The position numbers and the translations under genes are program-made. Of a stretch of 64,000 bases of DNA, positions 57,111 to 64,000 are shown in pieces. Source of the stretch: Blastocatellia bacterium (GTDB lineage Bacteria > Acidobacteriota > Blastocatellia > RBC074); NCBI GenBank assembly GCA_035652435.1, contig DASRDU010000014.1:1359-65358 (forward strand), written 5' to 3'. The notes under the pieces were generated by a model. The model did not search any database and was not told where the DNA came from. It saw only the letters and a list, made by a program, of their open reading frames with translations. Numbering within the stretch: the stretch's first letter is position 1; each line of letters opens with the position of its first letter.

Positions 57111-58154
57111 ATGGTTTGGGAAGAGCGGTGGCACCCCCTGCGCGAAGAATGGGTCATTGTCGCGGCGCATCGCCAGAACCGCCCCTGGAACGGCGAGACG
57201 GTTCGGCACGAGGAAGCGGCCCTGCCCGCTTATCTGCCCGACTGTTACCTGTGCCCCGGTAATGCGCGCGTCAGCGGCGCGCGCAACGAGGCTTACACCA
57301 CGACCTTCGTTTTTGATAACGATCATCCGTGCGTCGGATTCGACGCGCCGCAGGAGTTAACGCCGCCGACGGGCATTTACCGTGACCGGCCCGCCGCCGG
57401 CATCGCGCGTGTCGTCTGTTACAGCCCGAATCACGGCGTCACGCTGGCCGAACTTGAAGTGGGCGAGATCGCCGGGCTGCTGCGCGTCTGGCGCGAGCAG
57501 TATGTCGAACTGGGCGGCCACCCGCTGGTCAACCACGTGCTGATTTTCGAGAACAAAGGTGAGGCCGTCGGCGTGTCCAATCCGCACCCGCATTGCCAGA
57601 TTTACGCCACCAACTTCGTCTTCAAAACCATCGAGACCGAGGCCTGCGTCTCCGAACGTCATCTGGCCGAAACGGGGCGCGTACTCTTTCAGGACATCCT
57701 GGCCGCCGAGCGCGCCGACGGCCGGCGGATCATCTTCGAGAATGAGTCGGCGGTGGCCTTCCTGCCGTACTTCGCCCGCTACGCCTATGAATGCTACGTC
57801 GCGCCGAAGCAGACGCATGCGAGCCTCGCCACGTTCACCGATGCGGAATTGCATGATTTCGCCGCCGCGCTCAAACAGCTGCTGGTGCGGTACGACAACC
57901 TCTGGCGGATGCCGTTCCCATATGTGATGACGCTGCATCAGGCCCCGACCGACGGCGGCGATTACCTCGGCTTTCACTTCCACATCGAATTCCACCCGCC
58001 GCTGCGCAAGCCGAACCTGCTGAAATACCTCGCCGGGCCTGAAATCGGCGGCGGCAATTTCCTCTCCGACACGGCGCCGGAAGAGAAGGCGGCCGAATTA
58101 CGCGCGCAACCGGACACCCACTACAAACAGGCGAAGCGGGAGGAGGCAGGGTGA
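57111..58154 (+). CDS. galT: Galactose-1-phosphate uridylyltransferase (class I GalT, HIT superfamily).
   Basis: '[16 protein letters not shown]', zinc site 'DCYLCPGN', active site '[13 protein letters not shown]' (HPH-x-Q). Collinear with E. coli GalT. Confidence 0.85.
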
Positions 58155-59215
58155 ACGGACCATCAGGCGGCAGTAGCGATTTCTCGCCGGCCCCCGACGT
58201 GATGCCGCTGCTTGAACCATTGCGCCGCCTGCATGAATGCGTGCGCGATGCCGTGGTCGCGGCCTGCGAGAGAGCTGCGCTTGAAGATCTGGCGCGCGTG
58301 GACGACGACGATTCGGCCGGCGACACGATTTACGCCGTCGACCGCGTCAGCGAAGAGTTGTTGATCTCACTGTTCGAGCGTGAAATCGCGCCGCTCGCGC
58401 CGCTCGTCCTCGTCGGCGAAGGGTTGCCCGGCGGGCGCATCGTCCTGCCGCGTGGCTCTTCAGAGGAAGACGCGGTGTGGCGCGTGATCGTTGACCCGAT
58501 TGATGGCACGCGCGGGCTGATGTATCAGAAACGCAGCGCGTGGGTGCTGACCGGGGTCGCCCCGGACCGGGGCGCCGAAACAGACCTGCGTGACATCGTG
58601 CTGGCCGTCCAGACAGAGATCCCGCTGGTCAAGCAGCACCTCTGCGACTCGCTCTGGGCGGTGCGCGGTGGGGGCGCCCGGGCGGAGCGGTTCAACCGCC
58701 TGAGCGGCGAACGCGCCTCACTGCCGCTGCGACCGTCCAGGGCGGCAAGTATCCGTCACGGCTTTGCCGGCCTGGCACGATTCTTCCCCGGCGCGCGTGA
58801 AGTCCTCGCGGCGATTGATGAAGAGGTCGTGCGCAGTGCGCTCGGCGACGTCGCACACGGCAAGGCGCATTGTTTTGAAGACCAGTACCTGTCGAGCGGC
58901 GGGCAGCTTTACGAACTGATCGCCGGGCACGACCGGTTCATCGCCGACCTGCGCCCGCTGATGGAGCCACTGCTCCGCGAGCGCGGACTCAGCCTGGGCA
59001 TCTGCTGCCACCCGTACGACGTGTGTACGGAGCTGATCGCGCGTGAACTCGGCGTGATCGTTACGGACGAGCGCGGAGGGCCCCTGCGTGCGCCGCTTGA
59101 TGCGGAGGCCGATGTCGCGTGGGCCGGGTACGCGAATGAGCGGATCCGCGCTGAAATCGAACCGCCGTTGCAGCGCGCACTGCGGGCACGCGGATTGTTG
59201 AGTGATGCCGCATAA
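58151..59215 (+). CDS. Divergent inositol-monophosphatase/FBPase-family (FIG) sugar-phosphatase-like protein.
   Basis: Metal-site motif '[15 protein letters not shown]' (DPIDGT), and a degenerate C-terminal '[22 protein letters not shown]' in place of WDxAAG. Overlaps the galT stop (ATGA) and the kinase start. Confidence 0.6.
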
Positions 59216-60698
59216 CATTCCTTCAGAGTATCGAATCGTCCGCGGCGACGCGCGCGGACTGCCTGACGTCGCGGCTTTCATTGCGACGCTCAACTCGCTC
59301 GACGCGCACCCTTCACCGGAGGCCCATGATTTATTCGATGGCCGGTCTGAACTGATCGTCACGCGCGCGCCGGGTCGCCTGGACGTGATGGGCGGGATCG
59401 CGGATTACTCCGGCTCGCTCGTCCTGCAGTGGCCGATTCGGGAAGCGACTTTTGCCGCGCTGCAAACCGACGGCGAACGAAAGATTACAATCGTCAGCCT
59501 CACGCACGATGCCGGGCGGGAAACCAGGTTTGAAATGCCGCTCGCCGATTTCGAGACCGGCAGCGGGGCGGTTGATTACGCCGCCGCCCGCAGTTATTTC
59601 CGGCGGGACGCGGCGCGGCTCTGGGCGGCGTATGCGGCGGGCGCCTTTCTGGTGCTGATGCGCGAGCGGGGCGTCGGGTTCGGGCGGGGCGCACGCATCC
59701 TGATCTCTTCGCAGGTGCCGGAAGGCAAAGGCGTCAGCTCTTCGGCGGCAATCGAAGTCGCGGTGATGTCGGCGGTGGCGGCCGCGTTCGGGATTGAAAT
59801 CGCCCCGCGCGAGATGGCGCTGCTCTGCCAGAAGGTCGAGAACCTGGTCGTCGGCGCCCCGTGCGGCGTGATGGATCAGATGACGTCGGTCGGCGGCGAA
59901 GAGAACCGGCTGCTGGCGCTCCTGTGCCAGCCCGCTGAATCGCGGGGGACGGTCGCACTGCCGGAAGACCTGGCCGTGTGGGGGATTGATTCGGGCGTGC
60001 GCCATTCGGTCGGCGGGGGGGATTACGGCTCGGTGCGGACAGGCGCCTTTATGGGCTATCGGATTATTGCCGAGCTGGCCAGCCTGACGGCGTCACGTCG
60101 CGCAGACGGCGAGGTGGTGAGCGTTGATGACCCGGTCTGGGACGGCTTTCTGGCGAACGTGACGCCCTCGGAATTCGAGCAGACGTTCGCCGCGCGACTG
60201 CCGAAGCAAATGGAGGGCGGCGAGTTTCTGGCACGCTACGCTGGGACAACGGACGCGGTGACGCGCGTTGATCCGGGGCGGAGTTATACGGTGCTTGTCC
60301 CGACGGCGCACCCTGTTTATGAGCATTTCCGCGTTCAGTCGTTCGCCGAACTGCTCGGCACCGGGGCGGGTGAACGTCGCAATCAGCTGCTGGGCGAGCT
60401 GATGTATCAATCACACGCGAGCTATTCGGCCTGCGGCCTCGGCTCCGAAGGCACCGACCGGCTCGTCCGGCTGGTGAGGGCCGAAGGCGCAGCCGGCGGA
60501 CTGTACGGCGCGAAGATCACAGGCGGCGGCAGCGGCGGGACTGTCGCCGTACTCGGGCGGCGCGGCGCGGATGCTGCCGTGCGGCGAGTGGCCGAAAAAT
60601 ATGCCGGGGTGACCGGTCACCGTCCATACGTCTTCTCCGGCTCGTCACCGGGGAGCGCGGCGTTCGGTCAGTTGCAGTTAAAGAGAACGCTCGTTTAA
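59202..60698 (+). CDS. GHMP-family sugar kinase with a galactokinase signature (498 aa, larger than canonical GalK).
   Basis: Galactokinase N-terminal signature '[21 protein letters not shown]' (compare GalK 'APGRVNLIGEHTDY'), and the GHMP ATP motif '[20 protein letters not shown]'. Confidence 0.75.
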
Positions 60699-62737: not shown

Positions 62738-62806
62738 AAGGGGCTCGCCCGGGCTTCGCAGGGGTGTTTCTGCCACACCCTCATTCCTTCTTCGTTCAGA
62801 TAACAA

Positions 62807-64000
62807 ATGAACCCACCCGTCCTGCAAATGAGCGGCATTGAGAAGCGCTTCCCCGGCGTTCATGCGCTCAAGGGCGTTGACCTCGAGATCGGCGCGGGCG
62901 AGGTGGTGGCGCTCGTGGGCGAAAATGGCGCCGGCAAATCCACGCTGATGAAAATCATCGGCGGCGTGTACCAGCCTGACGCCGGCAGCTTGCGGGTGGA
63001 CGGCCACCCGGTGGTCATCAGGTCGGCGGCCGAAGCGATCCGGCTCGGCATCGGCTTCATTCATCAGGAACTGAATGTCCTCGACAATCTGGACATTGCC
63101 GGGAACGTCTTTCTCGGCCGCGAACTGAGGCGCGGCGGCTTCCCGGGCCTGCTCGACCGGAAAAGAATGATGGCGGAAACGGAGGCCAGCCTGCAGCGAC
63201 TCGGCCTTGGGCTGCCTGCCGACACCCCGCTCGACCGGCTCTCCATCGCGCAGCGACAGATGGTGGAGATCGCCAGGGTGCTTTCGCTCAATGCCCGCAT
63301 CCTGATTATGGACGAGCCGACGTCGAGCCTGACGCAGACTGAGACGGCGCGCCTGCTCGCGCTCGTCAAGGAGCTGCGGGCGCAGGGCGTCGGCATCATT
63401 TACATTTCGCACCGCCTCGGCGAAATTGAGGAAGTGGCCGACCGCGCGGCTGTGCTGCGCGACGGGGCCAATGTGGGGACGCTCGCGCGCGGGGAGATCA
63501 CGCACGACCGGCTGGTGACGATGATGGTCGGTCGCGACCTCAACCACTTTTACAGTCACCACGGCGAGGGGCGCCGGCCGCGCTATTTCGAAGTCTCCGG
63601 GCTGCGGACGCGCCGTTACCCGCACCATGAAGTCTCGTTCGAAATCGGCGCGGGCGAGATCCTTGGGATGGCGGGCCTCGTCGGCGCGGGCCGCACGGAA
63701 CTGGCGCAGGCGATCTTCGGGCTCGACGGCGGGCCGCCCGATCTCCGACTCGACGGGCGGCCGCTGCGCGTCGGGTCGCCGCGGGACGCCATCCGCCACG
63801 GCATCTACCTGATCCCCGAAGACCGCCGCCGGAGCGGCCTGATCACGGAATCGAACATCCGCGAAAACGTCTCGCTGCCCGCGCTCAGTTGTTACGCGAA
63901 GGCGGGGATCGTCTCCCGCGAACGCGAGCGCGGTGCGGTCGCCGGCATTTGCGGCAGGCTGAACGTCAGGGCGCCGAGCGTCGAGATGCGGGTGGCGAAT
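62807..64000 (+). CDS. Sugar ABC transporter ATP-binding protein (two-NBD RbsA/MglA/AraG type). The 3' end is truncated by the window edge.
   Basis: Not in the ORF track because it has no in-window stop. Manual translation from ATG 62807 is open to 64000. Walker A 'GENGAGKST', signature 'LSIAQRQMVEIAR', Walker B 'ILIMDEPTS'. The second NBD begins 'GMAGLVGAGRTE'. A small hairpin (GGGTGT...ACACCC) lies in the SBP-ATPase spacer. Confidence 0.8.
   Translation, partial: MNPPVLQMSGIEKRFPGVHALKGVDLEIGAGEVVALVGENGAGKSTLMKIIGGVYQPDAGSLRVDGHPVVIRSAAEAIRLGIGFIHQELNVLDNLDIAGNVFLGRELRRGGFPGLLDRKRMMAETEASLQRLGLGLPADTPLDRLSIAQRQMVEIARVLSLNARILIMDEPTSSLTQTETARLLALVKELRAQGVGIIYISHRLGEIEEVADRAAVLRDGANVGTLARGEITHDRLVTMMVGRDLNHFYSHHGEGRRPRYFEVSGLRTRRYPHHEVSFEIGAGEILGMAGLVGAGRTELAQAIFGLDGGPPDLRLDGRPLRVGSPRDAIRHGIYLIPEDRRRSGLITESNIRENVSLPALSCYAKAGIVSRERERGAVAGICGRLNVRAPSVEMRVAN

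Follow-up and report, generated by a model that had tools for sequence, protein, structure and literature searches.

A Leloir-like operon with an L-arabinokinase-type kinase and a divergent phosphatase in a Blastocatellia bacterium: a possible pathway from L-arabinose to D-xylose

Which sugar does a galactose-type operon serve if a phosphatase gene is inserted between its transferase and its kinase, and on what would that phosphatase act? The question is raised by a 64,000-nt stretch of the Acidobacteriota member Blastocatellia bacterium (contig DASRDU010000014.1), hereafter the window, in which genes for a DeoR-family regulator, a GalT-like uridylyltransferase, a phosphatase resembling inositol monophosphatase (IMPase), a GHMP-family kinase, a GalE-type epimerase, a sugar-binding protein and the ATPase of an ATP-binding cassette (ABC) importer follow one another on the plus strand between positions 56178 and 64000. 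A first-pass annotation had described a Leloir-like operon with an inserted IMPase-superfamily gene, a DeoR regulator upstream at 56178, and a lipoprotein sugar-binding protein together with an ATPase of two nucleotide-binding domains downstream. All of these genes were found where it had placed them, and the description is borne out by domain and NCBIfam matches, among them PF08220 and PF00455 for the regulator, Peripla_BP_4 for the binding protein and two ABC_tran domains for the ATPase. Of the coupling by ATGA junctions and overlaps that it also claimed, the overlap of the phosphatase and kinase genes, by 11–14 nt, is present, whereas the stop of galT and the start of the phosphatase gene share GTGA.

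The module of galT, phosphatase gene and kinase gene is conserved in related genomes, its kinase is related to the plant L-arabinokinase ARA1, and genes of arabinofuranosidases and of XylA and XylB are found in its neighbourhood. We propose, as a reading with about even prospects of being correct, that the operon constitutes a Leloir-type pathway acting on pentoses, in which L-arabinose would be turned into D-xylose by way of uridine diphosphate (UDP) sugars. More tentatively, and short of even prospects, we suggest that this represents a widespread fourth bacterial route for L-arabinose, common in soil Acidobacteriota and Chloroflexota, in which a 'pentose Leloir' cycle is combined with a dedicated alpha-D-xylose-1-phosphate phosphatase forming a new clade of the IMPase superfamily.

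The kinase and plant L-arabinokinase

The kinase, which comprises 498 residues from a GTG start or 497 from an ATG at 59205, possesses a GHMP core (PF00288, GHMP_kinases_N, 65.6 bits; PF08544, GHMP_kinases_C, 30.1 bits) with a conserved ATP-binding motif of the PxGxGLSSSA type. By BLASTP, its residues 5–497 align with residues 435–990 of the Lactuca sativa L-arabinokinase XP_023756665.1 (447 bits, E 8e-152, 46% identity), and in an HMMER search of 1.84 billion representative sequences the match of rank 5 was a 993-residue protein (468 bits, matched through its C-terminal half), whose cluster consists of Asteraceae proteins named L-arabinokinase. In a three-way alignment, an N-terminal extension and two insertions are common to the window kinase and ARA1 and absent from GalK, and it is because of the two insertions that the kinase is oversized. 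Both the window kinase and lettuce ARA1 carry the motif APGRLDV[MI]GGIADYSGS at the position where GalK has APGRVNLIGEHTDYN, and 95% or more of 56 family members retain the core of this motif (APGRL, GGI, DYSG). Relative to the GalK motif GEHTDYNxG, Glu and His of GEH are replaced by Gly and Ile, while Arg, both Asp and Tyr are kept. In the GalK structures of Lactococcus lactis and human, galactose is bound by the side chains of Arg, of Glu and His in the GEH motif, of Asp, of the catalytic Asp and of Tyr. If Glu of GEH does contact galactose in this way, the Gly-Ile pair of ARA1 and of this family would suit a sugar lacking C6; L-arabinopyranose differs from D-galactose in the absence of just this carbon.

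The glycosyltransferase-like N-terminal domain of plant ARA1 (about 430 residues) has no counterpart in the alignment with the 498-residue window protein, which, to judge by its sequence, is the kinase-domain-only form of ARA1. We therefore regard it as an orthologue-level relative of plant L-arabinokinase and predict it to be an L-arabinokinase (EC 2.7.1.46, KEGG K12446). The guess of the first-pass annotation that L-arabinose could be the substrate thus holds at the level of this 46% end-to-end identity. The kinase, oversized as that annotation had described, is not a bona fide GalK: all five GalK models were failed (for example TIGR00131 with 136 bits against a cutoff of 227, NF003472 with 146 against 499); nor does the protein fall firmly within GalK with all galactose-binding residues, the Glu-His pair of GEH being missing.

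These comparisons also bear on the most conventional explanation, an ordinary galactose Leloir operon with a divergent, oversized galactokinase and the IMPase-like gene as a passenger. GalT and GalE do pass the NCBIfam equivalog cutoffs for galactose enzymes, a weak Pfam galactokinase signature is matched by the kinase, about half of its homologues are named 'galactokinase' by the Joint Genome Institute, and a GH42 beta-galactosidase gene occurs in four related loci. However, besides scoring below every GalK cutoff, the kinase is only 27% identical to E. coli GalK (82 bits), shares its insertions with the far closer plant enzyme and lacks GEH, and arabinofuranosidases, not galactosidases, dominate the conserved neighbours. 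Moreover, three Acidobacteriota loci (L031, L047 and L072) contain canonical galK genes no more than 10 kb away from the gene of the ARA1-like kinase; the products of these galK genes are 45–46% identical to E. coli GalK and keep GEHTDY, as shown for L047 and L072, so that two distinct enzymes are present in the same genome. We consider the plain galactose operon largely refuted by these comparisons and assign it a very low probability, although the module may also take galactose.

The nearest solved structure is that of 'AbGHMP' (PDB 9ULX/9ULY, 498 residues), a member of the same protein family that is matched over its full length with E 1.6e-202 and roughly 65–70% identity, carries the GGIADYSGS motif and is identical to none of the sequences compared here. 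The kinase family is thus under study by another group, and the depositors may already know its substrate; our full-text literature searches returned neither a paper on 9ULX/9ULY nor a stated function. For the kinase family as well as for the phosphatase family, public data contain over 8000 relatives each.

As a separate observation, a more remote kinase of this family (39% identity, L089:8001-9473) is accompanied by phosphotransferase system genes (EIID-AGA, HPr, enzyme I) and a SIS/PGI-type isomerase gene in place of GalT and the phosphatase. It probably belongs to a subfamily with a different substrate.

Related loci and the proposed pentose cycle

By scanning the IMPase-like protein over one genome per species we obtained 80 loci, mostly from Acidobacteriota (Pyrinomonadaceae, Blastocatellia, Vicinamibacteria), the rest including Chloroflexota and Abditibacteriaceae, with 63–80% identity. 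The trio of GalT, IMPase-like protein and kinase recurs in most of them, which indicates that the arrangement is not due to chance. The order is GalT–phosphatase–kinase in nearly all Acidobacteriota loci and phosphatase–kinase–GalT in a subset, often followed by GalE and ABC importer genes; within the Acidobacteriota loci the kinase family was found in 56 and GalT in 46, and the trio is also present in the Chloroflexota loci L056 and L081. Even in L088, where the kinase is only 45% identical, genes for a ROK protein, GalT, phosphatase, kinase and GalE are joined by 4-nt overlaps.

For the neighbours of the module, open reading frames (ORFs) of 61 loci were clustered and family representatives scanned, and counts were taken over the 58 loci in which the IMPase-like gene is accompanied by the kinase or by GalT. 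An arabinofuranosidase family of any kind is present in 28 of these, with GH51 alpha-L-arabinofuranosidase in 25, GH127 beta-L-arabinofuranosidase in 11 and GH43 in 11. Upstream sequence of sufficient length is available in 34 loci, and in 15 of these GH51 immediately precedes galT. GalE follows the kinase in 20 of the 58, and a GalM-type mutarotase is found in 17. Xylose isomerase XylA (TIGR02631, 542 bits against a cutoff of 447) occurs in 15 and xylulokinase XylB (TIGR01312, 569 against 380) in 13, which amounts to 23 loci with one or the other, usually in a same-strand array right after GalE or the transporter, as in L057 with the order phosphatase–GalE–XylB–XylA. No araBAD is present in the window, and when the window and 1.39 Mb of related loci were searched with E. 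coli AraA and AraD, the only locus with homologues was one from Abditibacteriaceae (L036).

GalT is a class I transferase with an HPH nucleophile, 38.8% identical to the E. coli enzyme and well above the family cutoff (TIGR00209, 294 bits against 102). Its motifs PDCYLC, SPNH and SNPHPHCQ align with E. coli Cys52/55, His115 and His164-166, and in the alignment to PDB 1HXQ the zinc cysteines, His115, HPH, Gln168, Asn153, Gly159, Lys311 and Glu317 are kept. The sugar anchors of E. coli GalT that Thoden et al. reportedly described in 1997 are Asn153, Gly159, Lys311, Phe312, Val314, Tyr316, Glu317 and Gln323. At these positions Asn, Gly, Lys and Glu are retained, with Phe changed to Tyr, Val to Ala, Tyr316 to Pro and Gln323 to Leu. 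The sugar loop, which also contains one inserted residue, is thereby altered relative to RKFMVGYEMLAE-TQRD; these changes are invariant across the family, in 45–46 of the 46 GalT proteins of the cluster, and a similar loop is seen in PDB 6K5Z. GALT is known to accept non-natural derivatives of galactose-1-phosphate (PMC9875253). In L031, L047 and L072 a single GalT stands beside both kinase types, so the transferase may serve both sugars. GalE is likewise a clear family member (TIGR01179, 402 bits against 262; PDB GalE matches down to E 9e-105). We propose that it interconverts UDP-L-arabinose and UDP-xylose, and it probably acts on UDP-galactose and UDP-glucose as well. Among the plant homologues of GalE, UGE1 and UGE3 interconvert UDP-xylose and UDP-L-arabinose, and ARA1 produces L-arabinopyranose-1-phosphate (PMC5897480).

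In the pathway that we propose, L-arabinose released by the neighbouring arabinofuranosidases would be imported by the ABC system and phosphorylated, as beta-L-arabinopyranose, to L-arabinose-1-phosphate by the ARA1-type kinase. GalT would then react this with UDP-xylose to give UDP-L-arabinose and alpha-D-xylose-1-phosphate, and the GalE-type epimerase would return UDP-L-arabinose to UDP-xylose, with UDP-glucose as a possible primer of the cycle. Since the UDP pool must keep turning, GalT would have to use UDP-xylose as donor, and xylose-1-phosphate would be released. The IMPase-superfamily phosphatase would hydrolyse it to D-xylose, which xylose isomerase and xylulokinase would carry into the pentose phosphate pathway. 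The net reaction would be L-arabinose + ATP → D-xylose + ADP + Pi, rendered irreversible by the kinase and phosphatase steps. We know of no mutase that feeds xylose-1-phosphate into central metabolism; the scheme contains one orphan intermediate and the operon one orphan enzyme, and we therefore propose to pair them. The substrates of GalT, of GalE and especially of the phosphatase are inferred, as is the catabolic direction.

The Leloir gal operon of E. coli (GalK-GalT-GalE-GalM) likewise unites a kinase acting at the anomeric position, a uridylyltransferase with a His nucleophile and an NAD-dependent 4-epimerase of UDP-sugars, and a GalM-type mutarotase is often added in loci related to the window. 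The operon described here differs in the ARA1-type kinase, in the phosphatase between transferase and kinase and in the arabinofuranosidase and xylA/xylB neighbours; the proposed carrier is UDP-xylose in place of UDP-glucose, and the by-product would be hydrolysed and not passed to phosphoglucomutase. Known bacterial catabolism of L-arabinose proceeds either by the isomerase route of AraA, AraB and AraD or by an oxidative, non-phosphorylative route. With the araBAD route the proposed pathway would share the entry sugar and the endpoint xylulose-5-phosphate; in contrast, isomerase, ribulokinase and epimerase homologues are lacking from the window and from all related loci but L036, and the chemistry would run via nucleotide sugars and D-xylose. 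In full-text literature searches we found no description of a bacterial UDP-pentose route for L-arabinose.

Plants salvage L-arabinose by means of ARA1, a UDP-sugar pyrophosphorylase and UDP-xylose 4-epimerase or UGE1/UGE3 (PMC5897480), with which the operon shares the kinase domain with its motif and insertions and a GalE-family epimerase. Anabolic salvage in the bacterium, by which L-arabinose would be made into UDP-L-arabinose and, via the epimerase, UDP-xylose for the cell's own glycans, is hence suggested by the kinase type, and GalT working with UDP-glucose would yield UDP-L-arabinose together with recyclable glucose-1-phosphate. We nevertheless judge it improbable, because the module is located amid secreted or outer-membrane glycan-degrading functions and importers and under a DeoR-type sugar regulator, because xylB and xylA follow in the same gene array in many loci, because glycosyltransferases are absent from the conserved neighbours in Acidobacteriota, and because the phosphatase would be left unexplained. 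The operon further departs from the plant system by the missing N-terminal domain, by GalT in place of the pyrophosphorylase, by the added phosphatase and by its catabolic context. The first-pass annotation had drawn an analogy to plant salvage as a pairing of kinase and sugar-1-phosphate phosphatase, which fails for L-arabinose, where neither GalT nor a phosphatase takes part (PMC5897480).

The phosphatase and the points against the proposed cycle

In the pentose cycle, alpha-D-xylose-1-phosphate is the proposed substrate of the phosphatase, and this is the weakest step of the scheme. The 354-residue protein matches PF00459 marginally, with 30.5 bits against a cutoff of 27 and over residues 40–136 only; the family is matched by all 33 aligned homologues, with a best E-value of 6e-11. 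The metal-binding pattern of the superfamily, Glu ... DPxDG[ST] ... [WY]D, is present, the residues E90, D115-P-I-D118-G-T120 and Y289-D290 being invariant and aligned with the motifs of E. coli SuhB, and the protein additionally carries invariant blocks specific to its own family. We treat it on these grounds as an active Mg-dependent phosphomonoesterase. Beyond the motifs and a general fold seen in a weak model, it has diverged strongly from IMPase/SuhB and from class I fructose-1,6-bisphosphatases (FBPases): its best PDB sequence match has an E-value of 0.0025, a PDB profile search gave only marginal IMPase and FBPase matches, and hhalign comparisons with E. coli SuhB and Fbp returned low probabilities, though with the motifs aligned. 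An AlphaFold2 model built with 33 close homologues was poor (mean predicted local distance difference test score, pLDDT, 57; predicted template modelling score, pTM, 0.60) and was used for superfamily placement only. Among the known members of the superfamily are plant VTC4, an L-galactose-1-phosphate phosphatase, and human IMPase, which hydrolyses galactose-1-phosphate; some members hydrolyse anomeric sugar phosphates.

An alternative that retains L-arabinose, with or without galactose, as the substrate of the pathway assigns the phosphatase another role, either as a safety valve against toxic sugar-1-phosphates (L-arabinose-1-phosphate, galactose-1-phosphate) or as an FBPase-like gluconeogenic or housekeeping enzyme that is co-expressed on pentoses. 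The gene stands alone in unrelated contexts in many Chloroflexota, its level of conservation across phyla (63–81% identity) is housekeeping-like, class I FBPases are the best structural matches, elevated UDP-L-arabinose is toxic in plants (PMC12281597), and one GalT accompanies both kinase types in the three loci with a canonical galK. Yet dozens of loci, from different phyla, have the phosphatase gene fitted between galT and the kinase gene with overlapping stop and start codons, which argues for a role within the pathway. The solo and operon-linked copies form one clade, and the possibility that the solo Chloroflexota phosphatases are a separate paralogue clade is thereby ruled out. No FBPase family match was reported in the Pfam scan. 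A phosphatase that removed the phosphate just added by the kinase would create a futile cycle; hydrolysis of the xylose-1-phosphate formed when GalT exchanges with UDP-xylose is a better fit, and this compound would otherwise have no outlet. We consider this alternative unlikely, though more probable than either salvage or a plain galactose operon. A related caveat of the first-pass annotation, that the IMPase-like protein could be a conserved hitchhiker in unrelated contexts, is half upheld: many Chloroflexota copies do stand alone, and they are not a paralogue clade of their own.

Several points weigh against the pentose cycle with a xylose-1-phosphate phosphatase. A Foldseek search with the low-confidence phosphatase model returned FBPase/IMPase structures with class I FBPases first (E 3e-9, TM score about 0.5), so that this poor model (pLDDT 57) is nearest to class I FBPases. 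In about 18 loci of Chloroflexota and Abditibacteriaceae the IMPase-like gene has no linked GalT or kinase and could therefore have a more general role; the solo copies in Chloroflexota adjoin PMT_2 membrane proteins, an ECF sigma factor, MacB, a GAF response regulator, a LysM protein and an aminotransferase, neighbours that give no functional clue. In one metagenome-assembled genome of Abditibacteriaceae (L036:10001-17300) the gene, again with neither GalT nor kinase nearby, adjoins convergent homologues of araD, araB and araA, the sole araBAD in any locus examined, with AraA and AraD 59–62% identical to those of E. coli. On the window's own contig (L083), neither xylAB nor a mutarotase is found within 10 kb downstream. 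GH67, GH3 and a glucuronyl esterase occur in some related loci, besides the GH42 genes mentioned above, and the linkage to xylA/xylB could hence merely serve xylose derived from xylan. The altered sugar loop of GalT is shared by the short GalT of PDB 6K5Z/6K9Z, which was deposited as a galactose-1-phosphate uridylyltransferase; the loop is consequently not diagnostic of pentose specificity, and we dropped it as a sign thereof. Finally, the route would cost one ATP more than araBAD, and every substrate assignment in it is one that we infer.

L-arabinose is among the most abundant sugars of plant cell walls, and few groups of soil bacteria are as abundant as Acidobacteriota. Automatic annotation calls this module a galactose operon or labels the phosphatase 'inositol monophosphatase'. 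If the proposed cycle is correct, a new catabolic route would be added to the textbook set, a very conserved orphan phosphatase family would receive its first function, and metabolic reconstructions of soil carbon turnover would be corrected. L-arabinose would undergo net epimerisation to D-xylose, both hemicellulose pentoses thus entering via XylA/XylB, and a bacterial L-arabinokinase, a pentose-tolerant GalT and a UDP-xylose/UDP-arabinose epimerase would be useful for making UDP-L-arabinose and UDP-xylose. What would be new is the extension of the Leloir scheme to pentoses, together with the phosphatase, and its interest depends on biochemical confirmation.

Surroundings of the operon and candidate regulation

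The features of the window are collected in Table 1 together with the canonical galK genes of related loci. Positions 1–50000 are mostly occupied by a plant-glycan utilisation island, in which the arabinose-linked enzymes are three GH127, two GH51 and one GH43. The DeoR gene is immediately preceded by a set of hydroxyproline catabolism genes with an AraC-family regulator ahead of them (region 50110-55694); an 82-residue Fer2_4 subunit also appears in this set in the gene calls of the source contig L083. This content fits the degradation of arabinosylated hydroxyproline-rich glycoproteins or arabinans, and the link to L-arabinose from such glycoproteins that the first-pass annotation had drawn agrees with it. 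The base composition of the window gives no sign of a foreign island.

Table 1. Positions of genes and sites in the window, and of canonical galK genes in related loci
Feature	Position	Strand	Basis or remark
GH43	9-1901		
M20 peptidase	3117-4622		
GH51-type alpha-L-arabinofuranosidase	5420-7039	-	Alpha-L-AF_C domain
Sulfatase	7086-8756	-	
GH127 beta-L-arabinofuranosidase	11917-14457	+	PF07944 (373-445 bits for the three GH127)
DUF885 protein	27268-28932		
GH127 beta-L-arabinofuranosidase	28966-31416	+	PF07944
GH51-type alpha-L-arabinofuranosidase	31439-33001	-	Alpha-L-AF_C domain
GH31	34226-36709	-	
GntR regulator	36807-37517	-	
GH127 beta-L-arabinofuranosidase	37696-40458	-	PF07944
DPP-IV/S9 peptidase	40229-42562	-	
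Hydroxyproline catabolism genes (proline-racemase-type epimerase, DAO oxidoreductase, Pyr_redox_2 subunit, DHDPS-family enzyme)	51100-55694	+	
DeoR-family transcriptional regulator	56178-56969	+	PF08220 (HTH_DeoR), PF00455 (DeoRC)
Candidate operator, perfect 12-nt inverted repeat	57034-57064		CGATGCTCATTT-N7-AAATGAGCATCG, 100% complementary
GalT-family hexose/pentose-1-phosphate uridylyltransferase, class I, HPH nucleophile	57111-58154	+	TIGR00209
Divergent IMPase/FBPase-superfamily phosphatase, 354 residues	58151-59215	+	PF00459
ARA1-type anomeric sugar kinase, GHMP family	59202-60698	+	ARA1 homology
GalE-type UDP-sugar 4-epimerase	60759-61745	+	TIGR01179
Periplasmic or lipoprotein sugar-binding protein, CUT2-type ABC importer	61781-62737	+	Peripla_BP_4, 208 bits
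ABC ATPase, two nucleotide-binding domains	62807 (or 62828)-64000, runs past window end	+	ABC_tran
Canonical galK	L031:5671-6651	-	45-46% identity to E. coli GalK (range of the three)
Canonical galK	L047:5931-6911	-	
Canonical galK	L072:8061-8978	+	

The importer genes that end the array are of the CUT2 type. The sugar-binding protein has a lipoprotein-like N-terminus (MKTTLSVIAVTACLLLSVSCS), is a neighbour of the module in relatives too, and has AlsB, RbsB and RhaS as its nearest models, all below cutoff. The ATPase is complete on the source contig (ENA ERZ27279688, k141_265814, 181 kb) with 493 residues and both of its ABC_tran domains, scores about equally against the RbsA, AraG and XylG models, again below each cutoff, and is followed by a BPD_transp_2 permease gene and then by unrelated genes.

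The inverted repeat between the DeoR gene and galT overlaps a promoter-like site recognised by inspection (TTGACT-17-ATAAAT) 47 nt upstream of galT; a consensus promoter scan found no promoter, and terminator-like sites in the window are no commoner than in shuffled sequences. We regard the palindrome as a candidate DeoR operator and the DeoR protein, for which AgaR and GlpR are the nearest NCBIfam models, both below cutoff, as the likely repressor, which would control the operon from this site. A DeoR homologue is also encoded close to the homologous cluster in L003, L010, L020, L021, L023, L028, L030 and L076. The palindrome is conserved: as TGCTCATTT-N7-AAATGAGCA it heads homologous arrays in six relatives (L015:1008, L019:1794, L020:1810, L021:1649, L028:176 and L030:1516), usually between a divergent GH43 gene and an outer-membrane barrel gene and near DeoR genes. 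In the window, at about 22673 and 49905, single half-sites AAATGAGCA are located upstream of barrel genes.

The island holds three such outer-membrane barrels of the CarboxypepD_reg plus OMP_b-brl_4 type (9539-11284, 22874-26779 and 45483-49358, the last on the minus strand). The first has only 581 residues and covers no more than profile positions 1–299 of 838, which may reflect a truncation or a frameshift. Between the minus-strand GH127 gene and the S9 peptidase gene, the longest ORFs have some 230 nt in common; the catalytic domain of this GH127 begins at residue 149, and its true start is therefore probably further downstream. Also inside the island, at 18425-22524, a PSCyt1/PSCyt2/PSD1 protein of 855 residues is followed by a DUF1501 protein of 470 residues, both from uncharacterised families.

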